A stretch of DNA of 53,425 nucleotides, filler included, from Catajapyx aquilonaris (lineage: Eukaryota): the NCBI GenBank assembly GCA_000934665.2. It is 2 parts of 2 records of this genome, joined end to end, with 100 filler letters (N's around TTAATTAATTAA, not from the genome) between each part and the next. Parts side by side here need not be neighbours in the genome. Positions count along the whole stretch, not along the records: positions 26,773 to 53,425 come from KZ539300.1; 1 more part is not named here. One strand, written 5' to 3'. Position 1 is the stretch's first letter, and every line of letters starts with the position of its first letter. The translations under genes and the position numbers were made by a program. Positions 28,597 through 51,638 of this stretch are shown here, one piece after another. The notes below the pieces were generated by a model that saw nothing but the letters and a program-made list of their open reading frames with translations, was not told where the DNA came from and made no database searches.

Positions 28597-29687
28597 GGTA
28601 GTTCTTGCGCTAAGTCCATTTATTGACAATTTCGTGAAAATCACACCATCCATTCCTGGGCATGTCGCACATACTCCTGTGAAGTTTCAAGAGGTTCGTC
28701 TATCTCGTTTGTGAGATATTAATTTTCAAAGTTGGGCTTCTGGCGGCGCCTTATGCATGGAGCCTTATGGGAGCCGGTCTGCGGGCCTCGAGAAAAGTGT
28801 CCCTAGCTTCATGTTAACAAAAAACCATATTCATGTGGGGGCAAGTCGGGAGATTAATTTAGTGGCGATTTTCATAGGGGTCACCATGGTCCTTCCCCCG
28901 CATCTCGTCATTTTGTGAGGAGCCGACTCTACAGTTGGCGTCGAAGTGGCAACGCTGTAAGCGACGGTCGTCATGGCGGCCTTCGCTCGGGATTTGAAAA
29001 TCCCGAGCCGCCTAGGTATCAGAATGGCATGTAACTGACAAGGGAAGTGCAAGTGTTGTCCGTGGAGTTTCTGAATGAAACGCAGGTCCGGTACTGTATG
29101 AGTGTGTATGATTGTGTATGATTGTGTATGTGAGATTGGTCTCTGGTCTCAAGTTATTGATCGACTAGACAGTTATTACCTAAGTTACCAGCAAAGTTCG
29201 AATGGGGCGGGGGAGATGGGACTATCGATGTATTGATATCGATATATCGATGGTTTACTTATAAAATATCGATGTCTGATAAGCTCTAATCACTGTAATT
29301 TTATTAAAATATCGATGTAATAATCGGGGTCGAGAACTCGATATATCGCTGGGGGGAAATATCGATATATCGAAACATCGATACGTTGTTGATCAGGCCT
29401 GCCAACGTATGCAACGTTGCCGGATTTCCTGCACTTTTTCCGGTATTTGGAACAGCCATATTTCTGCTCTTCTCCGGGACAAAAGTGCACGAGGGAATTA
29501 TCATCCCCTAAATAAATGTTCACGTAACGTAACCGACGCGAAACACGTACTCAAAACTCTGTTTCAGAGAAATACTAGCAGAAATGTCTTACAATTGCAG
29601 AAGTTGGTATTGGCCAGCTCGCCCCATGTATAAACATAGGCTCAACACCCCTCCCCCTTCCCTCCGTTTCCAAGCACAAGAACTACC
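28597..29687. mobile_element. Non-autonomous Kolobok-like DNA transposon (1091 bp) inserted in the 3' end of ZNF copy 1
   Basis: TTAA|GGTAGTTCTTGCGCT ... AGCACAAGAACTACC|TTAA (15-bp TIR, 1 mismatch, TTAA TSD, GG...CC termini). The empty site ACATTCTGTGTTAAAGAAT is present in paralogues at ~38475-38495 and ~43416-43435. Confidence 0.85.
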
Positions 29688-30755
29688 TTAATGAATGAAT
29701 TCGCATGTGACTTTTCAAGGAGTTTGACTGACTAAAACCTTTCTGGCACATCTCACAAATGAATGGCTTTTCTCCTGTATGAGTTCCCATGTGCACTTTC
29801 AATTTGTCTGAACGATTAAATCCTTTCTGGCACACCTCACAAATGAATGGCTTTTCTCCTGTATGAGTTCGCCTGTGCAGTTTCAAGGCCATTGAATCCC
29901 TGAAACCTCTCTGGCACACATCACAAATGAATGGCTTTTCTCCCGTATGAGTTCGCATGTGCACTTTCAATCTGTCTGAACGAGTAAATCCTTTCTGGCA
30001 CACATCACAAATGAATGGCTTTTCTCCTGTATGAGTTCGCCTGTGCAGTTTCAAGGCCATTGAATCCCTGAAACCTCTCTGGCACACATCACAAATGAAC
30101 GGCTTTTCTCCTGTATGAGTTCGCCTGTGCAGTTTCAAGGCCATTGAATCCCTGAAACCTTTCTGGCACACATCACAAATGAATGGCTTTTCTCCTGTAT
30201 GAATTCGCATGTGCCGTTTCAAACAACTTTGAGTAAGAAACTTGTTCTTGCACACCTCACAGTGAAATGGTCTCTCTCCTGTATGAGTTAACATGTGAAT
30301 TTCCAATTTATGCAGAGTACCAAACAATTTCTCGCATACTCTGCATGCATGTGGATTTCCCGGATTTCCTGTAGTGCTTCTTTCCTCCTGGGTTCTGCCC
30401 TTTCCTGCTGCGTCTTCAGCTGTCTCTAGCACGATCTGAAACGTGCGAATCAAGTTTAGTGCAATATTTATATCGCAATTTCTGCATGATTACTTACGGC
30501 GCTAATCCGTCCGGACCCAAGTGCTAATGGGTCGTCTTCATCTTCGACACCACTGGACGTGGCCACCACCATCTCTTCCTCCTCCTCCGCTGGCTCCTCC
30601 TTGATCTCACGCAGCGTGTCTTCTGTGAAGAGCGTGGCGTCGCCTTCGAAGCATTCTGGTGCCTCCTCCTTGAGACGCAGCCGCCATGTCTCCTCCACCG
30701 TCACGTCTCCTTCCTCCAGCTCCTCCTCCTCCTCCTTGACCCCCAACGAGGTCAT
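29683..30755 (-). CDS. C2H2 zinc-finger protein, cluster copy 1 (8 fingers, ~336 aa)
   Basis: Exons 30755-30498 (MTSLGVKEE...DPLALGSGRISA|GTAAGT) and 30435-29683 (CAG|IVLETAED...). TGEKP linkers, near-identical 84-bp finger repeats. Confidence 0.9.
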
Positions 30756-31009
30756 GGCCCTGCAGGTCACCCAATGACCTCAATCCACGTCCCAACCTTG
30801 GAGGGTCTGCCAAGAGGAACATTCGGATGTGCCTGCCGCACACTTCACAACAAAAGGCCTGCCCTTCCACCCTCACACCTGAGCCCTCCTTCCCTGCACT
30901 GAGCATGCCCTGCACATCAAACCCTAGTTACCTGCACTCCTCCCAGTGTAATTACGCGTCTAATTAAACGTCATACACTTGGAAAGTTGACTCTTCGGAA
31001 CAGAATGTG

Positions 31010-31060
31010 GGCGCCATCTTGGATTCCGAACAAGTGACAGTCGCCCAATGGTGCCAACAT
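31010..31060 (-). promoter_or_regulatory. Conserved ZNF-cluster core promoter module (representative copy)
   Basis: GGCGCCATCTTGGATTCCGAACAAGTGACAGTCGCCCAATGGTGCCAACA. Related copies at ~35951, 39943, 42967, 45073, 46810, 51395. Contains YY1/PHO-type AAGATGGCG on minus. Confidence 0.6.
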
Positions 31061-31559
31061 GAGTTATATGGAAACTGGAACTCCATCATTCTAGATGGCG
31101 GGCATTTCGAAGCTTAAAAAAATCGTAAATCAGCCATTACTGATTGCGGAGACATAATGGAAACTGATCTGAAATCCTCAAAACAAGGGCTACTACTTAA
31201 TATATGAACATTAGGAATAGGCCATCTTGATTCGAGATGCCAGCTTCTTAATAACTTTAAAGAGCCATTATTGATCAGGAGAGACAAAATGGAACCGTAT
31301 GGAAATCTCCAACCGAGGGGAACAACTCCACAAATAAAAATTATTAGACAACTTATTACAGGTATTAGAAAGAGAGAGAAAAAAAACATTGCATATAGGC
31401 CATTGTTGATTGATTGTTGATGCACTAACAATCGATCTGATTATTAGCATTGTTGATCGATTGCTGATCGATTGTCGATGAACTAACAATAAAATAATAT
31501 GAGACAGCAAAATAATAGTGAATTTGTGATTTACCATGTACGCTTGGGAATAATTTCCA

Positions 31560-32330
31560 ATAACGATATCCAGGTACTTGCTGAGAGACTCGTGAATATC
31601 ACGTCGACTGATCCTGCTGTCTGATTCGATAAACTTACGAGTCAATTATCCAGCCTTCCAGACGATGCAGTATTTTTTGTTTGCTACCAACCAACCACAT
31701 TGTGCAAAGCCTTACATAAAGCCATACTTGAAGCTATAAACTCTCCTGAGATCATCCTGGAAGCTGAGGACTCGTTGGACTGTCCCAGATCTATGCTCCA
31801 GTCAATAAGCTATACTCAAAAAGTACGAAGAGGATTGTTCTAATCTAATACGGCTGGTTTGGAGAAAAAAAACATTACTATATTAAACTTGGCACAAAGA
31901 TTACGTTAAGAAGAAACATTGATGTTACTCTTGGGTTGGTTAACGGTGCAGTGGATACCATACTGAGTGTTATGTACGACCCAGACACTCCAAAAAAAAG
32001 TAAGCTCCATAAAAATTCAACTTTCTTTCGGATTGGAATACGATTTAGGGCCTGTTAAGAGCATATTTGAAGTTACAACTAAAGCATTCGTCTATAGAAA
32101 ACAGTTCCCTATAACGATAGCGTATACGGCATCACAATTCACAAGAGTCACGGCTTGAGCTTAGACACTGCCCTAATCGACATCGGCTCATCACTTTTCT
32201 GTTGCGGCCAAACCTACGTAGCCTTGGCTCGTGTCACAACAATTGACGGAATCTATATAATCAACTTTGATCATACCCAGGTAAAAGCTTACCCAATAGA
32301 AACTCCTTATACTGGAATACAACAGACTCG
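31560..32330 (+). pseudogene. Frameshifted PIF1-like helicase remnant (Helitron/Helentron-type)
   Basis: Pieces across frames: IKLGTKITLRRNIDVTLGLVNG, VYRKQFPITIAY, ITIHKSHGLSLDTALIDIG..F.CGQTYVALARVTTIDGI, matching the PIF1 C-terminal motifs. Confidence 0.8.
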
Positions 32331-32597
32331 CACATAATATTAGACAAATCCCAAAGTAGCCCTCCTAATGTCACGGAAACAAGGTAGATGTGTATGATGG
32401 GGGGAGTTGTTGGTTTGGGGTGTTGGAATACTGTTTGGAAGAGCATGGCATGGGCGGCCCTCTTACAAACATGTTATGTGTGTCCTCTGACACTTTGAAA
32501 ATAAAAACCCATCAATTCCACACTTATATCGCATTCTCCTGTGTACCGAAGAAAATATCATTCCTTATTTACTGCAACTGCACAAAAAGTCTTGAGA

Positions 32598-33346
32598 TCT
32601 AACCAAAAACGGACTCATAAAAAAACCGCCAAGTCCTTAGCCACTCCGCCTAAAAAAGTCGTGAGATCATGGGTGGACACCAAGCCTCTTTGTGAGACTA
32701 TAGATTAAGTCAAGTTACTTGGCTCACGATTGGAGAATATAGACTTACAACTCGTAGACTTGGCGCATGGTTCCAGACTATATAGACTAAGGTTGAGCCA
32801 CTTGGTTCACCGGGCATGAAGAGCAATGGACGACCTAATGATAAAATTTAGTAGTTTCTGATCAACCAATGACTAATACACGCCTTCCATTTACTGCTGT
32901 AATATCCAGACCGCAATTCCTTAATTACCGTATACTCATATAGTAACAAATTCCCCCTTCAAACCATACAGGGTGTTTCTCAACTCGCATCCAAAACTTC
33001 TAGGGTGAACTCCTGAGCACCAGTGAATCGCTTCACCTGCTCTATGTAAAGTGATCCACTTGGTGCACACGAGTTCAACCTCAAAGTTTTGGACACGAGT
33101 TGTGAAACACCTTGTACCGGTATAATTCCCCGTGAGCCAAGGGGCTCAACCTGAGTCTATCTAGTCTCGAACCATGCGCCAAGTCTACGAGTTGTAAGTC
33201 TATAGTTTCCAATCGTGAGCCAAGCAACTTGACTTAATCTGTAGTCTCACAAAGAGGCTTGGTGTCCACCCATGATCTCAAGACTTTTTTAGGCGGAGTG
33301 GCTAAGGACTTGGCGGGTTTTTTTACGAGTCCGTTTTTGGTTAGAT
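32598..33346. mobile_element. Inverted-repeat element with ~215-bp arms
   Basis: 32598-32811 (ATCTAACCAAAAACGGACTC...CACTTGGTTCAC) is the reverse complement of 33131-33346. Arms carry ~40-bp sub-repeats. Confidence 0.8.
32969..33114. mobile_element. Tc1/mariner-type MITE nested in the inverted-repeat element
   Basis: TA|CAGGGTGTTTCTCAACTCG ... CGAGTTGTGAAACACCTTG|TA, palindromic. Confidence 0.75.
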
Positions 33347-33849
33347 TATTTTTTTCAAAGGATCTTTTTGCTCATTTTTAATTTTAGTGTCTAGTGATCT
33401 CCTTTTTCATTAGATGTTAATTTTTTTAAGTGAAGAAAGAAATACTTAGTCCTCCCCGATCCCACAGAAGTGAAAGTTTTTGCGGGTCATGAAGACATTG
33501 CAAGAAACGAAGAAAAAAATATGTATGACCTTCCAAGTTGTATTTGAGATTATTTTTTTTGTACAAAATAGTTGATAAAATATTAATAATTCTGGAAAAT
33601 GAAGAATTCCTGGTATTTTTTAACTGCGTGTATTTTATTTTGTGAATATTAATTTGCAGATAAATGGTGGTGACTTTGGCAAGGCATATATGGCCGGTTT
33701 GTTTTTTCCTAATTTATTGTAATGTGCTCAATGATTCAATTAATCTTTAAAAAAAAACCTGTCATTATATCATGAGCATTAGACGGCCCAGATGAACTTA
33801 TTATCTGACTTTATATGGAATGTGCAGTACATTCATTTGAAGGGTACAA

Positions 33850-33925
33850 CACACAGTTAGTGTGTGGGTGAAGTGGTTAGGGCGTCATGCTCCTAATCTG
33901 AAGGTAGTAGGATCAAATCTTCTTC
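33850..33925 (+). mobile_element. Degraded tRNA-like SINE head
   Basis: GGTGAAGTGGTTAGGGCG...GGTAGTAGGATCAAATC resembles A/B boxes, no intact cloverleaf. Confidence 0.35.
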
Positions 33926-34397
33926 AGCTTTTGTTTATTCTTTTTCGCTATTCCCATTTAAAAAAATAAGGATGGGCAGCATGTCGATGCGATTTTAGAT
34001 AGACAAAATTTCGTATTACAAGGCTGCTATGCCATCATTACGTGAATTCAAAACTGATGCAATGAGCAGAGAGAAATTAATGTCGATTTTAGTGCACATT
34101 TATATATCGGGTTCGAAACTTGTTATAGGGGGCAATGCATACATACACCAAAATTATTTTCCTGAGGAAAGATGCAGCTAGAGTAACATAGTCCTGCACA
34201 TGTTAACTTTTGCTCTTTAAAAACAAATAATTTAAGTGTCATTTACCTGTTGGCAACATATTAAACGTGCCTGGGATGGATACGATGCAACGTAATGTTT
34301 AATTCGACATCCAAATGAGCTTGTTTATTAGAGTTAGAGTCAAAACAAGTCAGTGGACACTGATAGTTCATTACGAAATGTTTAATGTCATGGATCA

Positions 34398-35695
34398 TTA
34401 ATTATTAGGTGTTACATTCTGTGGCGTATGAATTCGCATGTGACATTTGAAAATACTTGGACTGAGAAAGTTTTTCTGGCACACTTCACAATGTAATATC
34501 TCTTTCCTACAAAAAGGCGTGTGCCTTTTCAATCTATCTGCATTACCAAATTTTTTCTTGCACAAGTCACATTGAACCGGACTCTTTCCCGTATGAATTA
34601 ACATGTGACATTTCAAATTACGTGCGCTAGGAAAATGTTTCTGGCACACCTCACAATAAAACCGTGTCACTCCGTTATGAACTTGCATGTGATATTCCAA
34701 ACGATGTGCCTCAGAAAATTTTGTCTGGCACACTTCACACTGAAATGGTTTGACTTCTTCATGAATTTGCATGTGAACTTTCAAACGAATTGATTGATGA
34801 AATATTTTCTGGCAGTACTCACAAATGAATGGTTTTACCTTTATCATGTGCTGTTTCAAACTGTCTGGATCACGAAATCTTTTCTGACACACTTCACAAA
34901 TGAATCGTTTTACTATTGTATGAATTTCCATGTGCTGTTTCATACTATCTGAATCACGAAATCTCCTCTGACACATCTCACAAATGAATGGGTATTCTTC
35001 TCGCATGTGCAGTTTCAAACTGTCTGAATCACGAAATCTTCTGTGACACAGCTTACAAACGAATGGGTATACGTCAGTATGAATTCGCATGTGCTGTTTC
35101 AAACTACCTGAACTGACATATTTGTTCTTGCACACCTCGCAAGTAAACGGTCTCTCTCCCGTATGAATTCGCATGTGCGTTTTCAAACTCCTTTCATTAC
35201 ACAATTTCTTCTGGCAAATTTGGCAGCGACTTTTTTCACCATGAGCTATCATATGAATTTCCAACTTATGCAGACTACCAAACAATTCCTGGCATATTCT
35301 GCATGCATGTGGATTTCTTCTAGTACTTGTTTCCTCCTGGATCCCGCCATTTTCTCCTCCATCTTCAGCGGTATCTTGCACGATCTGAAATGTGGATCAA
35401 GTTTAGCACAAATTTACATCGCAATTTCTGCATGATTACTTACGGCGCTAATCCTTCCGGAGCCAAGTGCTAATGGGTCTTCTTCATCTTTGACCGCACT
35501 GGACGTGGCCACCACCATCTCTTCCTCCTCCTCCGCTGCCTCCTCCTTGATCTCACGCAGCGTGTCTTCCACGAAGAGCGTGGCGTCCCCTTCGAAGCAT
35601 CCCGATGCTTCCTCCTTGAGCCGCAGCCTCCACGTCTCCTCCACCTTGAGGTCTTCTCCTTCCTCCAGCTCCTCCTTGACCCCCAACGAGGTCAT
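34398..35695 (-). CDS. C2H2 zinc-finger protein, cluster copy 2 (11 finger units, several degenerate, ~412 aa)
   Basis: Exons 35695-35444 and 35384-34398. Most diverged finger array: linkers eroded, two units lack the last His, one is CCHC. Confidence 0.88.
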
Positions 35696-36733
35696 GGCCC
35701 TGCAGGTCACCCAATGACCTCAATCCACGTCCCAACCCTGGAGGGTCTGCCAAGAGGAACATTCGGATGTGCCTGCCGCACACTTCACAACAAAAGGCCT
35801 GCCCTTCCACCCTCACACCTGAGCCCTCCTTCCCTGCACTGAGCATGCCCTGCACGTCAACCCTAGTTACCTGCACTCCTCCCAGCGTAATTACACGTCT
35901 AATTAAACGTCATTCACTTGAAAAGTTCCAGAGCATGTTCCATAATTTGGACGCCATCTTGGAATCCGAACAAGTAACAGTCGCCCAATCCAATGGTGCC
36001 AATACACAAATGTTCCTATAATGACCGTATAAACTTTTAATTGGGCAATTAAATGCATCATACTTAACCATCTACTGCAATTATCGACGTTTCTGCATTA
36101 AAATAATCGAATCTTTATTATCTGTCAAATACATTTCGACCCCGGGGAATTCAAACAAGTTGTGGTTCTCAACTGTTCCATTGATCTTTATTTATTATTT
36201 ACACAAAATATGTTAATGAGACTGTTAAAGTTAATTGTGTTTGTGGGCGGGAGGGGGGGGGGGGAAAGAATTTAAGTATCCCGACTGGCTGCTGCTAACC
36301 ACGTCTAAGAGGTTCCCCCAGGCTCCCACTACAATATTATTAGAAGTGGCATGGAATTTTTGTGCTGCTGCTAACTAGAAGTACTATTTGAGTTAGGAGA
36401 TGCACCAGGGTATCTCTAAAATACTGCTAAAAATGTGTTTTATTTATACTGTACATTTGTGTGTTTCCTAGTTAATAAGTGAACCTCCACTTGTTCTTCA
36501 CTGACTACATATGGACAATGCAGTGAAGATGTTGCTGACAGGGAATCAATCATGCAAGCTGGCCACATAAATTCTCCTTCAAGTATTTATTAGCGTCACT
36601 AAATATGTCTGATTCGTCCCACAAAATACAAACAGGGTACATCTAAGAAAGAACAAAGTAATATCAGTCCCAGCGCACATTATAAAAAGTTGATCCCTAT
36701 ATGCGCAACATGCATACCTAAATGTGCACTGTA

Positions 36734-37598
36734 CAGTGCCGTGCACAATAGCATATAACAAGTGTAAACAACGACTTTGGCGTTACCTGGCAACTGGGCG
36801 TGTTCGGACATCGGCATGTGGAGAGTGCTTAGCATTCTTTCCGTCGTTGCCACTGTTTATAGGTAGCGATTGATTGGGAGCGGATGACATTCAATGTGGA
36901 CCTTATATTAAATTGGCAGATAAGAGCATGTACCGGACTCCTTCCCGATCATTCAGTAACTCCATGCATCCTGACTCATACTGGAAAGTGACGATAGCGT
37001 GATAATAACGAAGCGCCTTCTCCAAATAATATCCCCCTCAGTGGGGAGGTGAAGTGGCGCAGCGGTAACGCTATTAATATTATTATTAATATTAATATTA
37101 AGGTCCCGGGTTCGATCCCCACCCGGTGTCCCCACCTTTATCCGTGCAGAGTTGGGCCATCTCTAGCTTCATTTCGGGTGGCAATTTCCGATAGACTAAG
37201 CCACCCGGGTGAGTTCACAAAATGACCGTTAGAGACATTGCACTTGCACTTTGCACATCCCCTCCTACCTACCCTGGAGTAATTAAATAAGATCTTATAT
37301 GGCTCCAATTTCCGATGGTGGTAATCCACCCCCCTAAAGGATATGGTAAATCCCAATGGGGTAATAAAATAATAATAATAATATCCCCCTCAGCCCGCTC
37401 ATTCCGATGCCATGCATTGGTAAGCATGCACACACCCTTCGCTATAGGTCGCCCAGCATCAATCGCTACCTGTAAACAGTGGAAACGACAGAAAGAGCGC
37501 TAAGAACTCTCCGCATGCCGATGTCCGAACACGCCCAGTTGCCAGGTAACGCCAAAGTCGTTGTTTACACTTGTTATATGCTATTGTGCACGACACTG
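36734..37598. mobile_element. Tc1/mariner-type MITE with ~140-bp TIRs
   Basis: TA|CAGTGCCGTGCACAATAGCATATAACAAG ... CTTGTTATATGCTATTGTGCACGACACTG|TA. Confidence 0.85.
37042..37380 (+). mobile_element. tRNA-derived SINE nested in the MITE
   Basis: A box TGGCGCAGCGG, B box GGTTCGATCCC, (AAT)n tail, TSD ATATCCCCCTCAG at 37029-37041 / 37381-37393. Confidence 0.85.
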
Positions 37599-38152
37599 TA
37601 CAAGACAATATGCAGCTGTAAGTGTTATGCACGACAAAATGCTTCCAATCACATGTGCAAGTTTGTCGTATCATTGTAAATATTATAGCAAACTATGATT
37701 GGAAAATCTGACATTATCTTGCACAGAAACATTATGCTCTTGCATTTTTTAGCATGGTCAGGAAAGAATGTCACCAAAGCCAGCATGAGTTACATTGATA
37801 TTTTCAGGCTGAGGTCATGCTTGCCTAATTATTTTGAGAGGAAATCCTCAGTCTACGAACAGGGTCATGTTCCTGAAAATGTCCATAAGTTGGATTTGTA
37901 GGATCATTGAGGAACACAGGACAATACATATACCCATACAGAGTGTGAAGATGCTGCTCCAACTATCTGCTTACCTCACATGTGTTTGTTTACATGTGCG
38001 GCAGAAAGTAATCCCCCAATTCTGTTGAACTTGGTGTCAGTCTACGTATACAGAAATGACTGAACATGGAGGAATAATTAGTGGAAATTATTCTTATACA
38101 GAGCCTTGGGAGCCCGTTTGCAAGTCAGTCGCATCGTTTGTAAACCTGGGGC

Positions 38153-38454: not shown

Positions 38455-38511
38455 AACCTGGGGCTTCCTGTATTACATTCTGTGTTAAAGAATTAATTCG
38501 CATGTGACTTT

Positions 38512-39698
38512 TCAAATAGTTTGACTAAAACGTTTCAGGGACAACTCACAAATGAATGGCTTTTCTTTCGAATGAGTTTGCATGTGCAGTTTCAAATTGC
38601 TTGACTGACTAAAACTTCTCTGGCACACCTCACAAATGAATGGCTTTTCTCCCGTATGAGTTCGCATGTGCAATTTCAAAGGGCCTGAATACCTGAAACC
38701 TTTCTGGCACACCTCACAAATGAATGGCTTTTCTCCTGTATGAGTTCGCATGTGGTTTTTCAAAGTCCATGAAGTACTCAAATATGTCTGGCATATCTCG
38801 CAAATGAATGGCTTTTCTCCTGTATGAGTTCGCATGTGCTTTTTCAAATTGGCTGAATTCCCGAAACCGTTCTGGCATACCTCACAAATGAATGGCTTTT
38901 CTCCGGTATGAGTTCGCATGTGCTTTTTCAAATTGGCTGAATTCCTGAAACCTTTCTGACACATCTCACAAATGAATGGCTTTTCTCCCGTATGAGTTCG
39001 CATGTGGGTTTTCAAACTGCCTGAATCCCTGAAACCTTTCTGGCATACCTCACAAATGAATGGCTTTTCTCCCGTATGAGTTAGCATATGCAATTTCAAA
39101 CTACTTGCATTAGGGAATTTTTTCTGGCATAGATCACAAACAAATGGTCTCTTTTGTGAATGAATTCGCATGTGCCTTTTCAAATGCTTCTCATCACTGT
39201 ATGTCTTCAGGCAAGTAAGGCAACGATTTTCTTCACTAGTATGAGTTAACATGTGAATTTCCAATTCATGCAGAGTACCAATCAATTTCTGGCATATTCT
39301 GCATGCATGTGGATTTCCTCGAGAGATTATTTCCTCCTGGATTCCGCCCTTTCCTGCTCCATCTTCAGCGGTATCTTGCACAATCTGAAACGTGTGAATC
39401 AAGTTTAGTGCAAATTTATATCGGAACATGCCAGCAGATTACGTACCGCATTAGTCCTTCCGGACCCAAGTGCTAATGGGTCCTCTTCATCTTCGACCGC
39501 ACTGGACGTGGCCACCACCATCTCTTCCTCCTCCTCCGCTGCCTCCTCCTTGATCTCACGCAGCGTGTCTTCCACGAAGAGCGTGGCGTCCCCTTCGAGG
39601 CATTCCGGTGTCTCCTCCTTGAGACGCAGCCTCCATGTCTCCTCCACGGTCACGTCTCCTTCCTCCAGCTCCTCCTCCTTGACCCCCAACGAGGTCAT
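38512..39698 (-). CDS. C2H2 zinc-finger protein, cluster copy 3 (9 fingers + broken 10th, ~374 aa)
   Basis: Exons 39698-39447 (donor GTACGT) and 39384-38512. Confidence 0.9.
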
Positions 39699-40132
39699 GG
39701 AGGTCACCCAATGACCTCAATCCACGTCCCAACCTTGGAGGGTCTGCCAAGAGGAACATTCGGATGTGCCTGCCGCACACTTCAAAAGGCCTGCCCTTCC
39801 ACCCTCACACCTGAGCCCTCCTTCCCCGTACTGAGCATGCCCTGCACATCAAACCCTAGTTACCTGCACTCACCCTAGTGTAATTACACGTCTAATTAAA
39901 CGTCATACACTTCAAAAGTTCCATAGCTTGTTCCACAATTTGGACGCCATCTTGGCCCAATGGTGCCAACACCAAAATATCTTATCGTATATTAGCTTGT
40001 TATCTAATAATTAATAATGTAAGTAAATGATTCGGCTTTAATTACATGCTGCGAATGTGAACGTCTGCTGTTTAAGTAAATTGAATGTTAATTTTTAATT
40101 TTATCTCAATGTTCCCAACCCAACTGGGCAAA

Positions 40133-41532: not shown

Positions 41533-42703
41533 TTATGAATTATCCTTATGGAGAGCCTTTGGAGCCCGTTCATAAGTACGGATAGCCGTATGTCGCGTCA
41601 CTTGTAAATCTGGGACTTCCTGTTTTACTGGTACATTCTGTTTTAAAGTATGAATTCGCATGTGAATTTTCAAAGTCTCTGAACGAATAAAACTTTTCTG
41701 GCACACCTCACAATGAAATGGTCTCTCTCGTCTATGAACTCGCACATGCTGTTTCAAATTGCTTGAATTACAAAATCCTTTCTGGCACAACTCACATATG
41801 AATGGCTTTTCTCCTGTATGAGTTCGCATGTGAACTTTCAAAGTACTTGCAACACGACATTTTTTCTGGCACACCTCACAAACAAATGGTCTTTCTCCTG
41901 TATGAATGCGCATGTGAGTTTTCAAAGTCTTCGAACAGCTGAAATTTTTCTGGCACACATCACAAGTAAATGGTCTCTCCCCGGTATGAATTCGCATGTG
42001 CAGTTTCAAATTACCTGAAGCACGAAATCTTTTCTGGCATACCTCACAAATGAACGGCTTTTCTCCCGTATGAGTGGGCATATGCAATTTCAAACTACTT
42101 GGATTAGGGAATATTTTCTGGCATAGATCACAAACGAATGGTCTCTTTCGTGAATGAATTAGCATGTGTGTTTTCAAATGCTTCCCATCACTAAATGTCT
42201 CCCGGCAAATGCGACAGCGATTTTTCCCACTAGTATGAGTTAATATGCGAGTTTCCAATTCATGCAGAGTACCACACAATTTCAGGCATACTCTGCATGC
42301 ATGTGGATTTCCTGTCGTGCTTCTTTCCTTCAGGATCCCACCCTTTTCCATTCCATCTTCAGCTGTTTCTTGCACGATCTGAAACGTGAATCAAGAGTTT
42401 AATCCAAAATTTATATCGCAATTTCAGCAAATTACGTACGGCGCGAATCCGTCCGGACCCAAGTGCTAATGGGTCTTCTTCATCTTCGACCGCACTGGAC
42501 GTGGCCACCACCATCTCTTCCTCCTCCTCCGCCGCCTCCTCCTTGATCTCACGCAGCGTGTCTTCCACGAAGAGCGTGGCGTCCCCTTCGAGGCATCCCG
42601 GTGCCTCCTCCTTGAGCCGCAGCCTCCACGTCTCCTCCACCTTGACGTCTTCTCCTTCCTCCAGCTCCTCCTCCTCCTCCTCCTTGACCCCCAACGAGGT
42701 CAT
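41533..42703 (-). CDS. C2H2 zinc-finger protein, cluster copy 4 (8 units, first degenerate, ~369 aa)
   Basis: Exons 42703-42440 and 42378-41533. Retains an extended C-terminal tail (QNVPVKQEVPD...YERAPKALHKDNS). Confidence 0.88.
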
Positions 42704-43506
42704 GGCCCTGCAGGTCACCCAATGACCTCAATCCACGTCCCAACCCTGGAGGGTCTGCAAAGTAGCACCCTGTGCTGGCAGCATGTTCCATGATGACTTA
42801 CACTTTCATTCTTACATGATGCAATGAGAATAGACCTTGAGCCCTCCTTCCCTGCACTGGGCATGCCCTGCACATCAAACCCTAGTTACCTGCACTCGTT
42901 CCAGTGTAATTACACGTCTAATTAAACGTCATGCACTTAGAAAGTTGAAGCTTCGGAACAGAACTTGGCCGCCATCTTGGATTCCGAACAAGTGACAGTC
43001 GCCCAATGGTGCCAACAGAAAATTGTTCCTATAATTACCGAATAAACTTTTAATTAGGTAATTAAATGCATCATACTTAACCATCTACTGCAATTATCTA
43101 CGTTTCAGCATTAAACTAATTGAATCTTAATTATCTGTCGATAACATAACCCGGGGTATTCAAAAGACAACTGGTGGTTCTCAACTGTTCCATTGATCTT
43201 TATTAATTATTTACATAAATGTTAAAGAGTTACAAGTGCGGCAGAAAGTAATCTCCCAATTATTTTTGGTTCTGTCGAAGTTGGTGTCAGTCTACGTACA
43301 TACAGAAGTGACAGAACGTGGAGGAATAATTTATTATAAATTATCCTTATAGAGAGCCTTGGGAGCCCGTTCGTAAGTCAGTCGAGTCGCTTGTAATCCA
43401 GGGACTTCCCGTATAACATTCTGTGTTAAAGAATGAATTCGCATGTGAATTTTCAAATAGTTTGACTAAAACCTTTCTGGGACAGCTCACAAATGAACGG
43501 CTTTTC

Positions 43507-44388
43507 TTACGAATGAGTTTGCATGTGTTTCTTCAAAGTCCATGAACGTCGAAAACTTTTCTGGCACACCTTACAAATGAATGACTTTTCTCCCGTATGA
43601 ATTCGCATGTGCTTTTTCAAAGTCCCTGAATAACTAAAACTTGTCTGGCACACCTCACAACTATATGGCTTTTCTCCCGTATGAATTCGCATGTGCAGTT
43701 TCAAAATCCATGAATCCCTGAAACCTTTGTGGCACATCTCGCAAATGCATGGCTTTTCACCTGTATGAGTTCGCATGTGCCTTTTTAAGCAACTTTGAGT
43801 ATGAAACTTGTTCTTGCACACCTCACAGTGAATTAATGGTCTCTCTCCTGCATGAGTTAGCATGTGCCTTTTCAAATACTTAGCAGTACGCAATGTCTTC
43901 AGGCAAATATGGCAGTGATGCTTTTCACCATGAGTTAGCATGTGGATTTCCAATTCATGCAGAGTACCAAACAATTTCTGGCATATTCTGCATGCATGTG
44001 GATTTCTTCTAGCGCCTCTTTCCACCTGGATACCGCCCTTTCTTGCTCCATCTTCAGGTGTCTCTTGCACGATCTGAAATGTGAATCAAGTTTAGTCCAA
44101 AAAATTTATCAAAATTACAGTATGGTTACGAACCGTATTAGTCCTTCCGGACCCAAGTGCTAATGGGTCTTCATCATCTTCGACCGTGCTGGACGTGGCC
44201 ACCACCATCTCTTCCTCCTCCTCCGCTGCCTCCTCCTTGATCCCACGCAGCGTGTCTTCTATGAAGAGCGTGGCATCCCCTTCGAAGCATTCCGGTGCCT
44301 CCTCCTTGAGACGCAGCCTCCATGTCTCCTCCACGGTCACGTCTCCTTCCTCCAGCTCCGCCTCCTTCTTGACCCCCAACGAGGTCAT
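43507..44388 (-). CDS. C2H2 zinc-finger protein, cluster copy 5 (6 fingers, ~273 aa)
   Basis: Exons 44388-44134 (donor GTTCGT) and 44073-43507. Dead finger after the stop. Confidence 0.82.
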
Positions 44389-44504
44389 GGCCCTGCAGGT
44401 CACCCAATCACCTCAATCCATGCCCCAACCTTGGACGGTCTGCAAAGAGGAACATTCAGATGTGCCGCACACTTCAAAACAAAAGGTCTACTACACATTC
44501 TCAC

Positions 44505-44955
44505 ACCTGAAGATCTATTCTCATATCTACGAGTAGTCGAAATATCGTTGCGATTTTGGCTTTTCAAGCACGTGCGAGTACTAGCTACTCGCAACGGGTG
44601 TTTTCATTTATCGTTGCGAATTTGGCTTTTCACGCACGTGCGAATCATGGCCTAATCGAGTAGTGCGCGGGTGGGAGATTCGAATTCGAACGTGAACTAG
44701 CGGAAAATAATTAGTCCCCCACAGCTGTAGTGCTGTACAAAGGATTTTTCGTCGCTATTTTGGACTGGGACAAAGTCCCTGATCACTGGAGAATCATAAG
44801 TTGGGTGAAGCAGTTCCGTGACACTTGGACACAGCATCGTGTCTGGACCAGAGAATCACTGGACATCTAAGGACATGTGGCACGCAATGTGCCACTCCGA
44901 AGTCCACGACGATTGTCCATTAGGCAATCCTTGGCACTAGGAATGTCCCATGTTC
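44505..44955. mobile_element. Foreign ~450-bp insertion in the 5' leader of ZNF copy 5
   Basis: Alignment to paralogous leaders breaks after CTCACACCTGA and resumes at TGCACTGGGCATGCCCTGCAC. Insert has an internal repeat TATCGTTGCGA.TTTGGCTTTTCA.GCACGTGCGA. Confidence 0.6.
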
Positions 44956-45499
44956 CATGCACTGGGCATGCCCTGCACATCAAACCCTAGTTACCTGCAC
45001 TCCTCCCAGTGTAATTACGCGTCTAATTAAATGTCATACACTTGGAAAGTTGACTCTTCGGAACAGAATGTGGGCGCCATCTTGGATTCCGAACAAGTGA
45101 CAGTCGCCCAATGGGTGCCAACAGAAAATTGTTCCTATAATATTACCGAATAAACTTTTAATTATGTAATTAAATGCATCATACTTAACCATCTACTGCA
45201 CTTTTCAACGTTTTAGCATTAAAATAATCGAATCTTAATTATCTGTCGATAACATTTCGAACCCGGGGAATTCAAACTACTGGTGGTTCTCAACTGTTCC
45301 ATTGATCTTTATTTATTATTTACATAAATGTTAAAGAGACTATTAAAGTTAAGTGTGTTTGTGGGCGNNNNNNNNNNNGGGGGGGGGGGGGAATTTAAGT
45401 ATCCCGACTGGCTGCTGCTAACCACGTCTAAGAGGTCTACGAACAGCGTCATGTTCCTGGAAGTTGGATTTGTATGTAACTTTTCTTACAAAGCTTTTC

Positions 45500-46547
45500 T
45501 TACGAATGAGTTTGCATGTGTTTCTTCAAAGTCTTTGAATGACTATAACCTTTCTGGCACACCTCACAAATGAATGACTTTTCTCCGGTATGAGTTCGCA
45601 TGTGCTTTTTCAAACTGCTTGGATCACTAAAACTTTTGTGGCACACCTCACAAAAGAGTGGCTTTTCTCCTGTATGAGTTCGCATGTGCAGTTTCAAATT
45701 GCCTGACTGACAAAAACTTTTCTGGCACACCTCACAAATGAATGGCTTTTCTCCCGTATGAATTTGCATGTGCATTTTCAAATTGCTTGAACTCCTGAAA
45801 CCTTTCTGGCACACCTCACAAATGAATGGCTTTTCTCCCGTATGAATTCGCATGTGCTTTTTCAAAATCCATGAATCCCTGAAACCTTTCTGGCACATCT
45901 CGTATTTGAATGGCTTTTCACCTGTATGAGTTCGCATGTGCCTTTTCAAACAACTTTGAGTATGAAACTTGTTCTTGCACACCTCACAGTGAAATGGTCT
46001 CTCTCCCGTATGAATTCGCATGTGCCTTTTCAAAGACTTTGCAGTACGCAATGTCTTCTGGCAAATTTGGCAGCGACTCTTTTCACCATGAGTTATCATA
46101 TGAATTTCCAACTTATGCAGACTACCAAACAATTTCTGGCATATTCTGCATGCATGTGGATTTCTTCTAGCGCCTCTTTCCACCTGGTTTCCGCCCTTTC
46201 CTGCTCCATCTCCTGTGGTATCGTGCACCATCTGAAATGTGTGAATCAAGTTTAGCACAAATTTATATCGCAATTACAGCATGATTACTTACGGCGCTAA
46301 TCCTTCCGGCCCCAAGTGCTAGTGGGTCTTCTTCATCTTGGACTGCACTGGACGTGGCCAGCACCATCTCTTCCTCCTCCTCCGCTGCCTCCTCCTTGAT
46401 CTCACACAGCGTGTCTTCCATGAAGAGCGTGGTGTCCCCTTCGAAGCATCCCGGTGCCTCCTCCTTGAGCCGCAGCCTCCACGTCCCCTCCACCTTGAAG
46501 TCTTCTCCTTCCTCCTCCTCCTCCTCCTTGACCCCCAACGAGGTCAT
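45500..46547 (-). CDS. C2H2 zinc-finger protein, cluster copy 6 (8 units, one Cys->Tyr, ~328 aa)
   Basis: Exons 46547-46293 and 46231-45500. Confidence 0.88.
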
Positions 46548-47089
46548 GGCCCTGCAGGTCACCCAATGACCTCAATCCACGTCCCAACCTTGGAGGGTCT
46601 GCCAAGAGGAACATTCGGATGTGCCTGCCGCACACTTCACAACAAAAGGCCTGCCCTTCCACCCTCACACCTGAGCCCTCCTTCCCTGTACTGAGCATGC
46701 CCTGCACACCAACCCTAGTTACCTGCACTCCTCCCAGTGTAATATTATACGTCTGTCGTCTCATACACTTGGAAAGTTGAAGATTCCAGATCTTCCAGAA
46801 CAAAACTTGCGCGCCATCTTGGAAAACGAACTGTCGTCAATGATGCCAACACGAAACCTGTTTGCATAATTCCCATACGAATTAACTATTAATTAGGTAA
46901 TTACATGCCGCGCATTTAACCACATACTGAGAGTATGTGATCATCTGTCCCTTAAAAAATAATGTTAATTACCTGTTGCACGGTCTGTTGGCATCATGTT
47001 GTGAACCCGGCATATTCAAACAAGGGTGGTTGGCATGGAATTCTTAGTGTCGCTGCTAAGAACAGCCACTGCTTAAACTAGCAGGACCA

Positions 47090-47570
47090 GATTTAGAGAT
47101 GCCCCTCCCTGAGTATCTCTAAAATACTGCTAAGGCAGTCTACATCAGGCTGATGTGAAGAAAAAAAAGCCCTGCAGTTGCTGGAGTCTCTGGGAGGTTC
47201 ACAGCTGCGCAACGTCAAAAGATGATGGATGAAATACAAACTAGGAAACGAAAAGAATGGACAAATATGATGTATTGTGATTTCCTCTTTGGTGTTACGT
47301 AAGGAGCAATAATATTCTAAATCCATTTGTATTTTGAAGTCATTTAAATGTAAAAACAAGTGGATTCATTTCGAAGGTTGGCCGCCAGCCTAATTAAATG
47401 TAAAGGTAAGTTGCAAGTTAAATAAGTTTCCAGGAACGGGGAATTATTTGTCAATGCATAATTAGAATATCTCTTCGAATCATTTAAACCTAGGTGATCT
47501 TGTTGAATTGTTGCATCTATGCATGTAATTAGCATGCTTTTAGTCGAAAAATCGTTTGTATTTTGCAACC
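47090..47570 (-). mobile_element. Non-LTR retrotransposon ORF2 3' remnant
   Basis: Broken reading ETYLTCNLPLHLIRLAANLR...YCSLRNTKEEITIHHICP resembles the Cys/His-containing LINE C-terminus. Confidence 0.45.
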
Positions 47571-47689
47571 ATTTGTGTATACGGACATTCCCATTTTATT
47601 ATATTCTCTATTTAACCATGCCCAGCTTTTAATTGGGTGATGCAGCGCAGTAGTGGAGTGTGGCGGGGTTGAGCCCTGATGAGTGCATT

Positions 47690-48480
47690 AGTGATATTAG
47701 TTAGTTGTTGGGTGACGTCAATGTGGTGGGCCTATAGTGGAAACCTGGAAGGATTATGAGTTATGTGTTTCGTACTTATCAGAGTGGTATGTTATTCAAT
47801 CGCCAGCTACGAGAGAGGTGTCAGTGGGCCGACCTTCCGGATGCTTGTTAGTATTTGTTAGCAAGAAGTGGAAGATTTTGAGCAGTAGAGTCCTCGATTC
47901 TGGCGAAGAGGTTAACCAAGTGGTCGGACAGCCATATAACCTTTTACCAAATAGCCAAGGTCGTCAATTTTGATAAGACCAAAGTCTTGATATTTACTAA
48001 AACAGGAAGACTGCAGGTCGGGCATACGTACTATATGGATGGGCACCAGTTGGAACAAGTGCAAAGTTACACATATCTGGGTGTTCCCTTTCAGGCAAGC
48101 GCTAGCTTTTACAAAACAGCACTTTATTTTTCTGCTAAAGCCAAGCAGGCAGTAAACATACTTTGGCCGGTATTGATTAAGTTAAAAATCCGCAGCCTGA
48201 AAACGGCGTTGAAGCTGTTCCATGCCAAAGTAGTCCCAATCTTGACGTTTGCGTTATTCATATGGGGTCCACAGTATATTGATGAATTTAAAAAAGTACG
48301 AAAAAAAAAAAAATTCTGAGGCGATTTTTTGCACTTCCAAAGAGTACAGCTGGATTTTTTTTTGAGACTCGAGTTAAACTTGACACCCCTCTCAGTACGA
48401 CTGATAACGATTATGATAAGAGGACTGGAAGGCTTACCTGTGCACTCGCTAGCCCGTAGAGCCTGGCTGTATCTCTGAAA
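47690..48480 (+). mobile_element. Internally deleted LINE (endonuclease start + RT C-terminal part)
   Basis: VETW...PATREVSVGRPSGCLLVFV (AP-endonuclease N-terminus), then KTKVLIF...LEQVQSYTYLGVPF...LKLFHAKVVPILTFALFIWG (post-RT region of L2/CR1-group LINEs). Confidence 0.75.
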
Positions 48481-48492
48481 ATAAGGACTCTA

Positions 48493-49052
48493 CGTAGAAA
48501 AGGTACTTCATACTTTTTGTGGAGTACATGCTTCTCTACAACCTTTGTTTGGCACATATCCGCCAGAGAGGCATAGTTCGTTCAGAAAATACTTTCAACT
48601 CGCTTCAAGGTAGCCAACCCACAATTATGGCCCTCCAGGTCAAAAAGGGCCGTGGCGCCATATCTGGATTGGAAGAGTATGGTCTCAGATAGAGACATGC
48701 TTACCAAATTTCACCAATGCACGGCTGACTTTTTTTTCGTCCATTAATTTGGTTCAAGTCGCAGTAGCTCCGAAAATACGGTCCGTAAGTGGAAAGGTTA
48801 CTATATACTTTTTGTAGCATACATGTTTCTCCACAACATTTGTTTGGCACATATCCGCCTAAGAAGCATAGTTCGCTCAGAAAAAGACTTGTCACTCGCT
48901 TCAGTGTAGCCAACCCGCCTCCTGGGCGAAAACGGGTGTGGCGCAATATCTGAATTTGAAGAGTATGCTCTCAGGGACATTTGTACCAAATTTCATGCTT
49001 TTTTCACCAAATGCACGGTTGAGACTTTATTCGTCCCTTAACGTCCGGACCA
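48493..49052. repeat. Two diverged direct copies (~290 bp) of a DNA-transposon-like end
   Basis: ATACTTTTTGT...TTTGTTTGGCACATATCCGCC...GTAGCCAACCC...ACCAAATTTCA...TGCACGG at ~48493-48750 and ~48785-49052. Confidence 0.65.
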
Positions 49053-49844
49053 TATCCCAATTTGTACTTGAGACATTTAACGCACTTATTGTACACCCAC
49101 CTCACTTGTACTGAATTGTTTGAATAATTTAGATTTTTTCAAGCTGTATGTAAGAAGGCTAAATTGTGAGTAAGATACTTAAGTGGCCAAATTGAACAAA
49201 CTTGTGTTAACACTAGACAAACATCACCAGTGGAAATCATGGAGGACTACGTAATTTAACTCAAGTACCGTTCTTCTTTTTGTTCTTTTTCTCCAGGAGT
49301 ACTATTCAATACTGCATAGTTCTCAGGTTCCTGAGTCTAGTGATAACATAATATACTCCTACTGCTATTTTTAAGGCTGGTGAACATAACATGGAACTGT
49401 CCAGACTAAGGCGACTGTGATGTACATACTGAACGAGACTACACAAATTAAGTTCTGTATGACTGCTGTTGTCTCCCCTCCTACAGGCCATTGGCCTCGC
49501 AGGGTATAATAAATAAATAAATAAAAAATAATAATAATCCTTCTGGATCCAAGTGACAGTGGGCTCATAATAGATTACATACCGCACAGTGGGCTCAGTA
49601 ATGTCATTGCATAATATTACTAAGCACAACATTTGTCGAGACAAAATGTTACCAATCACATATGCAAGTATGATGGATCACTATAAATTAAATAACGTTT
49701 TCTTGCACAGAAACATTACGCTCTTGTATTCTACATGATTTTAAAGCATTAATTTGAAATAATGTCACCACAGCATGCACCACTTTCATTATTTATTATG
49801 ATAATATTATCATGTAGAGGACATGCTTCCCTGATTCATAGGAT

Positions 49845-51137
49845 TTAAAACCCAGATGGTTCATCCGACATTTTCTTATGGCACGGATCGGTAATTATTA
49901 CAGTCTGTGGTGTATGAATTCGCATGTGACATTTAAAAATCACCGGGTTGCGAAATGCTTTTTGGCATACCTCACAATATAGTCTCTCTCTTGTATGAGT
50001 TTGCATGTGCCATTTCAAACTACTTCGATTAGAATATTTGCTTTGGCACACCTCACAAATGAATGGCTTTTCTCCTGTATGGGTTCGCACGTGCAGTTTC
50101 AAAGTTTCTGAACAAATAAAACCTTTCTGACATACCTCACAAATGAATGGCTTTTCTCCCGTATGAAGTCGCATGTGTCTCTTCAAAGTCTCTGAACGAC
50201 TGAAACTTTTCTGACACACTTCACAAATGAATGGCTTTTCTCCTGTATGGGTTCGCATGTGCAGTTTCAAAGTCCACGAAGAACTAAAACTTTTGTGGCA
50301 CACCTCACAAATGAACGACTTTTCTCCCGTATGTGTTCGCATGTGGGCTTTCAAATTGCCTGAATGGCTCAATTTTTTCTGGCATACTTCACAAATAAAT
50401 GGTCTCTCTCCGGAATGACTACCCATATGAAATCTCAAATGGTCTGCCTTCCTAAAACATTTCTGGCACACATTACAAACGAAGGGCTTTTCTCCTGTAT
50501 GAATTTGCATCTGCTGTTTCAAACAACTTTGAGTAAGAAACTTGTTCTTGCACACCTCACAGTGAATTGGTCTCTCTCCTGCATGAATTAGTACCATATG
50601 AATTTTCAAACCCTTTGCAGAACGCAATGTCTTCAGGCAAATATGGCAGCGATGCTTTTCACCATGAGTTAACATGTGGATTTCCAATTCATGCAGAGTA
50701 CCAAACAATTTCTGGCATATTCTGCATGCATGTGGATTTCTTCTAGCGCCGCTTTCTTCCTGGATTCTGCCCTTTCCTGCTCCATCTTCAGGGGTATCTT
50801 GCACGATCTGAAATGTTAATCAAGTTTAGTCCAAAAAATTTATTAAAATTACAGTATGGTTACAAACCGTATTAGTCCTTCCGGACCCAAGTGCTAATGG
50901 GTCGTCTTCATCTTCGACTGCAGTGGGCATGGCCACCACCATCTCTTCCTCCTCCTCCTCCGCTGCCTCCTCTTTGATCTCACGCAGCGTGTCTTCCACG
51001 AAGAGCATGGCGTCCCCTTCGAAGCATCCCGGTGCCTCCTCCTTGAGACGCAGCCTCCACGTCTCCTCCACCTTGAGGTCTTCTCCTTCCTCCAGCTCCT
51101 CCTCCTCCTCCTCCTCCTTGACCCCCAACGAGGTCAT
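49845..51137 (-). CDS. C2H2 zinc-finger protein, cluster copy 7 (10 units, one degenerate, ~410 aa)
   Basis: Exons 51137-50868 (donor GTTTGT) and 50807-49845. Confidence 0.85.
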
Positions 51138-51638
51138 GGCCCTGCAGGTCACCCAATGACCTCAATCCACGTCCCAACCTTGGAGGGTCTGCCAAGAGGA
51201 ACATTCGGATGTGCCTGCCGCCCACTTCGAAACAAAAGGCCTGCCCTTCCACCCTCACACCTGAGCCCTCCTTCCCTGGACTGAGCATGCCCTGCACACC
51301 AACCCTAGTTACCTGCACTCACCCGACTGTAATTACACGTCTAATTAAACGTCATTCACTTGGAAAGTTGACTCTTCTTCTGAACATGAACTTGGCCGCC
51401 ATCTTGGATTCCGAACAGGTGACAATCGCCCAATGGGTGCCAACAGAAAATTGTTCCTATAATTACCATATAAACTTTTAATTAGGCAATTAAATGCATC
51501 ATACTTAACTCTCTATTGCAATTATCAACGTTTCCTCATTAAAATAATTGAATCTTAAATATCTGCTAATAACGTTTCGAACCCGGGGAATTCAAACTAC
51601 TGGTGGTTCTCAACTGTTCCATTGATCTTTATTTATTA

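Follow-up and report, generated by a model that had tools for sequence, protein, structure and literature searches.

A stretch of 53,425 nucleotides from the genome of Catajapyx aquilonaris (GCA_000934665.2), hereafter called the window, carries a tandem cluster of seven C2H2 zinc-finger protein (ZNF) genes. The cluster lies in the part of the window that comes from KZ539300.1. Each gene joins an array of diversified zinc fingers to a conserved, acidic N-terminal exon, in which nearly all lysines lie in consensus sites for SUMO attachment. These genes very probably represent a real, expressed ZNF subfamily with an effector-type N-terminal region (the head) that is not catalogued. The explanation that we prefer for the cluster as a whole, with a probability of about 42%, is that of a young, lineage-restricted tandem C2H2 subfamily in which the acidic head would accept several SUMO moieties and would thereby act in repression.

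Gene models were derived from a list of stop-to-stop open reading frames (ORFs) between positions 29000 and 52000, followed by scripted placing of the ATGs, the splice donors and the acceptor. The list contained seven pairs of ORFs on the minus strand, each consisting of an ORF of about 100 residues with the sequence MTSLGVKEE and, downstream of it, a finger ORF of 190-330 residues. The seven genes, numbered g1 to g7 in order of falling coordinates, are co-oriented (all features of the genes given below are on the minus strand) and have two coding exons each, exon 1 with 84-90 codons and exon 2 with every finger. The predicted proteins are 273-412 residues long. The ATG of each gene is the first base of its exon 1, and the coordinates of exon 2 include the stop codon. 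Exon 1 encodes an acidic head of 90 amino acids (aa) in g1 (50868..51137), 85 aa in g2 (46293..46547) and in g3 (44134..44388), 88 aa in g4 (42440..42703), 84 aa in g5 (39447..39698) and in g6 (35444..35695), and 86 aa in g7 (30498..30755). All the coding introns are in phase 0 with GT..AG borders and have a length of 60 nt in g1 (50808..50867), 61 nt in g2 (46232..46292), 60 nt in g3 (44074..44133), 61 nt in g4 (42379..42439), 62 nt in g5 (39385..39446), 59 nt in g6 (35385..35443) and 62 nt in g7 (30436..30497). The donors are GCC/GTAAGT, GCG/GTACGT or ACG/GTT[TC]GT (the slash marks the exon border), and the acceptor TTTCAG/AT is common to the seven genes. A preliminary description of the window had proposed seven co-oriented genes with a single finger exon, an exon 1 of 84-90 codons and an intron of 59-62 bp, and the gene models confirmed all of these features. 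It had also stated that exon 1 shows only in-frame indels. In agreement with this, the exon 1 lengths (270, 255, 255, 264, 252, 252 and 258 nt from g1 to g7) are all multiples of three, and together with the free variation of the intron lengths between 59 and 62 nt this counts for coding constraint. In BLAST searches within the window, exon 1 and the cassette upstream of it were each detected in exactly seven copies, with no extra remnants of either.

The seven genes belong to the C2H2 zinc-finger proteins (PF00096/PF13465), a class defined by tandem C-x2-C-x12-H-x3-H fingers joined by linkers of the TGEKP type. Three of the seven exon 2 translations were scanned against Pfam, and all three matched zf-C2H2 (E = 1.9e-35 to 2.2e-39) and zf-H2C2_2 (E down to 1.4e-56).

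Evidence for splicing came from public sequencing runs that cover the stretch, namely four DNA-type runs and one run of unrecorded kind (X5). The contigs of X5 were compared with those of the DNA run X1 over positions 29600-49599, an interval that holds g2 to g7 and ends before g1. X5 contigs join position 35384 to 35444 in g6, 42378 to 42440 in g4 and 44073 to 44134 in g3, thus skipping exactly the predicted introns. The skipped segments have CT..AC ends on the plus strand, corresponding to GT..AG on the strand of the genes. No intron-skipping contig was found in X1 over this interval. X5 depth was nil over several intergenic bins (31601-33601 and 46942-49599). Given the intron-skipping joints and these empty bins, we read X5 as RNA-derived. 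Splicing as predicted was thus shown for three (g3, g4 and g6) of the six genes covered, while the X5 joints listed included none that skip the introns of g2, g5 or g7. One X5 contig also skips 84 nt inside the g4 finger array (41716-41801). This segment is exactly one finger unit long. Its skipping could mean that the assembly collapsed two similar fingers, or that a variant exists which lacks one finger.

In the alignment of the seven exon 1 peptides, 56 of the 90 columns are invariant and the mean column identity is 88%. Asp and Glu make up 31-37% of the head, which has a net charge of -17 to -25 and contains one invariant Trp, 1-3 Phe, 8-9 Leu, 1-2 Cys and no His. None of the seven peptides matched a Pfam domain at E <= 10, a search that had been called for in advance. 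The NCBIfam scan of exon 1 gave nothing better than E = 0.06, and the best E value in a sequence profile search against PDB was 0.55. When the exon 1 profile was compared with 1.84 billion representative proteins, two matches were obtained at E <= 0.001. Both were spurious, being long, internally repetitive proteins unrelated to ZNFs. A word-index search for exon 1 within longer proteins returned none among 1203 candidates, an ESM Atlas look-up gave no usable match, and no homologue of the exon 2 leader (residues 1-75) was present among three candidates. Neither the comparison of upstream regions nor BLAST within the window revealed a further conserved coding exon upstream of exon 1. A survey of titles and beginnings of abstracts in an incomplete library found no arthropod ZNFs described as having an acidic N-terminal exon of the psi-K-x-E type.

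These results bear on the assignment of the genes to known ZNF families, which the preliminary description had considered unrecognisable in exon 1 for KRAB, SCAN, BTB and ZAD. Membership in the KRAB-ZNF family was rejected, as none of the seven peptides matched KRAB (PF01352) at E <= 10. Membership in the SCAN-ZNF and BTB-ZNF families was rejected on the lack of a Pfam match in exon 1 and of a conserved additional coding exon upstream. The ZAD-ZNF family was likewise rejected. There was no zf-AD match, and with 1-2 Cys and no His per head a ZAD-type Cys4 site is impossible. The dissimilarity of exon 1 to these four domains therefore held. A PLAL motif, described earlier as reminiscent of a binding site for CtBP, is indeed present and invariant, as DPLALG in all seven heads. 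The CtBP motif has the consensus PxDLS, and DPLALG has Ala and Gly at places where acidic or polar and Ser-like residues are needed. The motif was thus retained and its reading as a CtBP-recruiting site was rejected.

The lysines of the head follow a single pattern. In the seven genes, 26 of the 27 exon 1 lysines lie in [VILFM]KxE, as against 2 of the 190 lysines in exon 2. Each head has 3-5 such sites, whereas 20,000 composition-preserving shuffles of each head give an expectation of 0.2-0.3 (P <= 8e-4 in every gene; as the genes are paralogues, these P values are not independent of each other). K7, K32 and K55 occur in every head without exception, as do the sites VKEE, LKEE and IKEE. Four genes have a fourth site, [LVF]KVE, where the other three have Thr, and a fifth, VKDE, was gained in g6, which thus reaches five sites. 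In every gene, three to five of the six residues following VKEE and IKEE are acidic. A psi-K-x-E site with downstream acidic residues is an acidic-patch variant of the SUMO consensus. By its sequence, the head therefore has the character of a candidate acidic-patch psi-K-x-E effector region. The 3-4 SUMO-consensus sites claimed earlier proved to be real, and the signal is much stronger than that claim.

The finger arrays differ among the genes in length, state of preservation and predicted DNA contacts. A regular expression detected 9, 7, 6, 7, 9, 9 and 8 canonical fingers in g1 to g7, and reading of the predicted proteins with degenerate fingers included gave 10, 8, 6, 8, 9, 11 and 8. The latter series, read from low to high coordinates, is identical to the finger numbers reported previously (8, 11, 9, 8, 6, 8, 10). 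Exon 2 encodes 320 aa in g1 (49845..50807), 243 aa in g2 (45500..46231), 188 aa in g3 (43507..44073), 281 aa in g4 (41533..42378), 290 aa in g5 (38512..39384), 328 aa in g6 (34398..35384) and 250 aa in g7 (29683..30435). In g2 and g3 the stop codon replaces a residue of a finger linker, and g4 has an intact C-terminal tail. The homology of the finger exon continues past the stop codons of g3 (43433-43506), g5 (38471-38511) and g2 (45493-45499). In g3 and g5, a decayed, frameshifted last finger is followed by a tail similar to that of g4. The array of g6 contains degenerate fingers and many non-canonical linkers. Within exon 2 of g7 (30435-29683), the contact residues are identical in three fingers and nearly so in another two. 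These fingers alternate along the array, which suggests that a unit of two fingers was duplicated internally very recently. Taken together, the changes in the arrays look like the usual birth-and-death pattern of clustered ZNF genes.

Substitution patterns within the fingers were analysed with 50 canonical units of 28 residues, from which 39 nearest-neighbour pairs were picked on the non-contact codons. Entropy was highest at the DNA-contact positions -1, +2, +3 and +6 (3.2-3.3 bits) and zero at the Cys and His positions. With 143 nonsynonymous and 25 synonymous differences, the four contact positions had a ratio of nonsynonymous to synonymous divergence (dN/dS, or omega) of 1.72 (binomial test: P = 0.034), as against 0.49 elsewhere in the fingers (Fisher's exact test for the contrast: P = 5e-5, from pairs that are not independent). 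The claimed divergence of the recognition helices is thus supported, the contact positions being the fastest. This pattern would fit either diversifying or relaxed selection on DNA specificity.

Conservation extends beyond exon 1. Upstream of the ATG, some 300 nt are conserved among the seven genes and form a cassette, putatively the promoter and 5' untranslated region (5'UTR). The motif CCAAGATGGCG is invariant in this cassette at about 260 nt upstream of the ATG. The window contains seven occurrences, one for each gene and always on the strand of that gene, compared with 0.65 expected. The cassette lies at 51138..51434 in g1 (motif at 51397-51407), 46548..46831 in g2 (46812-46822), 42704..43015 in g4 (42970-42980), 39699..39955 in g5 (39945-39955), 35696..36005 in g6 (35952-35962) and 30756..31057 in g7 (31012-31022). 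In g3 it is split by a 442-nt insertion (44511..44952) into a distal part with the motif (44953..45112; motif at 45075-45085) and a proximal part (44389..44510). A conserved CAG/GTAACT about 185 nt and a conserved TTGGCAG/ACC about 52 nt upstream of the ATG look like the borders of a putative 5'UTR intron, inside which the insertion of g3 would lie. The X5 joints listed for positions 29600-49599 included none for this putative intron. One X5 contig (44671-44951) lies inside the g3 insertion, and the coding intron of g3 is spliced in X5 despite the insertion upstream.

Divergence was compared between the segments of the genes as pairwise means. Exon 1 has dN of 0.064, dS of 0.148 and omega of 0.44. 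The values are 0.144, 0.20 and 0.72 for the exon 2 leader with the first finger, and 0.27, 0.50 and 0.55 for the remaining finger array. The mean distance is about 0.13 in the upstream 310 nt, from which g3 was excluded because its insertion disturbs the alignment, and 0.31 in the intron. Counted as distinct changes from the consensus, exon 1 has 35 nonsynonymous changes at 201 sites and 20 synonymous changes at 57 sites, giving an omega of about 0.49 and a significant deficit of nonsynonymous changes (binomial test: P = 0.011). Across the 5' cassette, synonymous and nonsynonymous divergence are both three- to four-fold lower.

From these data we propose that each gene combines a conserved 5' cassette (the upstream 300 nt or so, the head exon, the intron, a short leader and the first finger) with a variable array of 6-11 fingers. 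The array would tether the protein to DNA, the head would be SUMOylated at its 3-5 lysines, and the SUMO moieties would recruit co-repressors that have SUMO-interaction motifs, leading to local repression. The cluster itself evolves by birth and death, through duplication of fingers, gain of stop codons or frameshifts at the 3' end, fast change of contact residues and gene conversion of the 5' cassette. SUMO-dependent repression appears the likeliest of the readings of the head, and we advance it tentatively. SUMOylation of the head, its repressive action and its targets, which may include transposable elements (TEs), are predictions from the sequence.

Support for a repressive head comes from work on human proteins. 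Of the 166 repression domains with SUMOylation motifs in a human tiling screen, at least 149 needed the motifs for repression. The screen also showed that an IKEE tile of MGA with a length of 10 residues is enough to repress, and that the IKEE site of SP3 lies in the essential part of the SP3 repression domain (preprint 10.1101/2022.08.26.505496). SUMO at Sp3 is also reported to silence target genes (PMC2978682). The need for such motifs in human repression domains favours the repressive reading of the head. The sites in Sp3 and MGA share the IKEE acceptor motif with the head, where it stands within acidic sequence. They are, however, single sites in unrelated proteins, whereas 3-5 sites are present here in a dedicated, duplicated exon. 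The relation is one of functional analogy and not of homology.

Several observations weigh against this explanation. The first group concerns the cause of conservation. The dS of exon 1 (0.15) is only about one third of that of the finger array (0.50), and it is also lower than the distance in the intron (0.31). The 57 informative sites from position -130 to +531 form 1596 pairs, of which 850 fail the four-gamete test. Incompatibility is clustered along the sequence, with 0.364 among neighbouring sites versus 0.533 after permutation, a value reached in none of 5000 permutations. The cassette is accordingly a mosaic. For example, the 5' half of exon 1 is common to g3, g5 and g7, while the 3' end of exon 1 and the intron are common to g1, g3 and g5 and then to g1 and g3. 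The low dS and the mosaic indicate that the segments from the promoter through the head, the intron and the leader to the first finger are kept alike by gene conversion or by unequal exchange, and concerted evolution therefore explains much of the conservation of exon 1. That conservation is due only partly to purifying selection, which is moderate (omega of about 0.44-0.5). The strong conservation of exon 1 noted in the preliminary description thus carries less weight, as much of it has another source than purifying selection. Its view of an undescribed, lineage-specific effector exon on diversifying ZNFs was supported in part: the exon matched no known domain in the searches above and the fingers do diversify, and part of the conservation of the exon is attributable to concerted evolution. 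Some copies are also decaying, as seen in the degenerate fingers of g6, the linker stops of g2 and g3 and the frameshifted last finger of g5. An internal repeat, instead of selection for modification, could account for part of the psi-K-E-E pattern. In addition, the presumed RNA nature of X5 is deduced only from its intron-skipping joints. Finally, a Drosophila screen for repressive domains found SUMOylation sites not to be enriched in repressive fragments (PMC9890238), which speaks against an easy transfer of the human results to arthropods.

The low divergence of the cassette also leaves room for a head that recruits no cofactor. It could be a disordered, acidic tail which, by folding back onto the basic fingers, would auto-inhibit binding or tune specificity or solubility, and which is kept uniform mainly via gene conversion. 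Such a tail would agree with the divergence of exon 1 (dS 0.15) and of the upstream region (about 0.13 without g3), both low against 0.50 in the finger array, with the mosaic and with an omega of merely 0.45-0.5 or so, and the structure model described below shows no compact fold. An unspecific acidic tail, however, would need neither the invariant Trp, Leu, Phe and DPLALG nor the placing of every lysine in one motif, and the nonsynonymous deficit in exon 1 is significant. We therefore think this account quite improbable.

A further point against SUMO-dependent repression is that the composition of the head also matches that of acidic activation domains. The head could be a transactivation domain, possibly one that is switched by SUMO, and the genes would then encode activators or bifunctional factors. 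The Asp/Glu content of 31-37%, the charge of -17 to -25 and the interspersed invariant Trp, Phe and Leu are of the acidic-activation type, and the structure model contains helix-prone segments, at low confidence. There are precedents in domains that both activate and repress (preprint 10.1101/2022.08.26.505496) and in ATF7, where an IKEE SUMO site inside the activation domain inhibits activity (PMC1851647). Activation does not need the arrangement of 26 of 27 lysines in psi-K-x-E, however, and in the human screen SUMO motifs mapped to repression, while their deletion in activation domains rarely lowered activation (preprint 10.1101/2022.08.26.505496). An activating head is thus unlikely in our view, though it deserves to be kept in mind.

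The predicted structure of the head is also weak. AlphaFold2, run on the alignment of the seven sequences, produced two long helices (residues 5-34 and 42-69) with a mean pLDDT of 63.5 and a pTM of 0.28. An acidic region that is helix-prone or disordered agrees better with this model than a compact fold does. Two long helices might suggest that the head associates with itself as a dimerisation module, in analogy with ZAD, SCAN or BTB. The prediction of a two-copy complex of the head, with a score of 0.02 (mark: 0.32), decided neither for nor against this. The confidence of the model is low, however, and with a net charge of -17 to -25 on each chain homotypic packing is not favoured. The head has neither a Cys4 site nor a Pfam match to zf-AD, SCAN or BTB. 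Dimerisation is the function of the head to which we give the least credence.

The design of an effector exon followed by a diversifying finger exon is known and is not a new principle, and what the cluster adds is an acidic head that is not catalogued. The KRAB-ZNF clusters of tetrapods are similar in having one or more effector exons followed by one finger exon, in tandem clustering, in a conserved 5' part combined with diversification of contact residues, and in birth-and-death turnover. They differ in that exon 1 of the present genes does not match KRAB and in the proposed mechanism, which would be direct acceptance of SUMO instead of docking to KAP1/TRIM28. In this respect, insects have no direct KAP-1 orthologue according to the milkweed bug genome paper (PMC6444547). 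The arthropod ZAD-ZNFs resemble the cluster as large, dynamic families in which a lineage-specific N-terminal module precedes C2H2 arrays, but ZAD is a zinc-binding Cys4 dimerisation fold, whereas the head contains 1-2 Cys but no His, and did not match zf-AD. In Hemiptera, the ZF271-like and APEZ expansions are likewise young tandem C2H2 clusters (of 4-8 genes) with pseudogenes and variable finger number, and a repressive role has been proposed for them (PMC6444547). They are reported to be without any domain other than the fingers, while all the genes of the present cluster keep a conserved non-finger exon.

A close parallel in design is provided by the FiNZ-ZNFs of cyprinid fish. FiNZ is described as a Glu-rich N-terminal sequence of 28 residues, without other matches and unique to cyprinids, which has an exon to itself and is followed by one exon with the fingers (Wells et al. 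2023, PMC10547256). Zebrafish has about 700 FiNZ-ZNF genes, which evolve adaptively and whose knock-down derepresses TEs (PMC10547256). The two-exon design, the clustering and the rapid diversification are common to both systems. The difference lies in the N-terminal part, with 28 residues in FiNZ and 84-90 residues with 3-5 psi-K-x-E sites in the head. It might still be supposed that exon 1 is a diverged homologue of FiNZ, or of a KRAB-like lineage, and acts via a TRIM-type cofactor. A Glu-rich N-terminal exon and a single all-finger exon are common to both (PMC10547256), and co-immunoprecipitation data suggest an interaction of FiNZ with TRIM33 (PMC11603059). FiNZ is nevertheless short and described as unique to cyprinid fish (PMC10547256), and Glu-rich low-complexity sequence converges easily. 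The exon 1 profile retrieved no fish ZNF at E <= 0.001 among the 1.84 billion proteins, a search with low power for a motif of about 20 residues. A possible resemblance between exon 1 and FiNZ at the level of motifs, also pointed out in the preliminary description, may serve as a lead, and we do not take it as a test. Common descent of the head with FiNZ or KRAB is very unlikely on balance.

Returning to SUMO-dependent repression, its interest lies in a more general problem. Most of the fast-evolving, large ZNF families outside tetrapods have no known effector domain, and the way in which they act on chromatin is open. As insects lack KAP-1, alternative partners have been called for in the milkweed bug genome paper (PMC6444547). 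An exon in which nearly all lysines are in the SUMO consensus leads to a concrete hypothesis, namely that SUMO would be a built-in adaptor. If this is true and the family is large, the cluster would represent a third independent coupling of diversifying fingers to silencing, after KRAB and FiNZ. If the SUMO hypothesis fails, it would be one more small lineage-specific ZNF cluster. In the widest version, the head would be the mark of a large arthropod-lineage ZNF system that silences TEs by direct exposure of several SUMO moieties to a SUMO-dependent heterochromatin machinery, as an independent, cofactor-free counterpart of KRAB/KAP1 and FiNZ. We regard so broad a system as improbable.

The surroundings of the cluster contain genes that look single-copy. 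Three of them were named by eye from ORF translations: a gene like mRNA-capping enzyme (2806-9000, minus strand), a TSSK-like kinase (10275-11866, plus strand) and a ZnT-type zinc transporter (15529-16863, plus strand). Exons of ABCD4 (24382-26651, minus strand) were confirmed by protein search, the best database proteins being 52-55% identical to an ABCD4 exon. Rfam and tRNA scans of the window predicted no RNA genes. Two runs of N (at about 26725-26775 and 45340-45350; 99 N in total) were read as assembly gaps, the second of which lies between the g3 promoter and the 3' end of g2.

The cluster had been described as lying in TE-rich DNA. In spacer segments, the summed k-mer depth in a DNA run is indeed 10-600 times that of unique contigs, a figure that is not a copy number. 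In a Pfam scan of ten intergenic ORFs, one had a COMM domain, one had a weak helicase match and eight had nothing, so that the TE-rich character of the surroundings is backed by the k-mer depth peaks only, with a single weak helicase fragment on the protein side. This fragment is a short ORF (32098-32337, plus strand) similar to the C-terminal part of a PIF1/Helitron-type helicase (Herpes_Helicase, E = 0.0029), and it is probably a piece of a transposon between g7 and g6. The most extreme peaks are at 36937-37603, between g6 and g5, and at 38271-38937, at the 3' end of g5, with a summed DNA-run k-mer depth of about 30,000 and 15,000, respectively, compared with about 40-50 for unique contigs. 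X5 depth was likewise high there (145 and 113), and both segments are probably very abundant, transcribed short repeats.

The ORF with the COMM domain (40085-40432, plus strand; PF07258, E = 2.1e-13) is arranged head-to-head with g5, on the far side of the CCAAGATGGCG motif of that gene and at a distance of about 130 nt from it. X5 contigs extend over this ORF at 40122-40651. A COMMD-like gene that is short and has no introns may be present here, or else a retrocopy, sharing a bidirectional promoter with g5.

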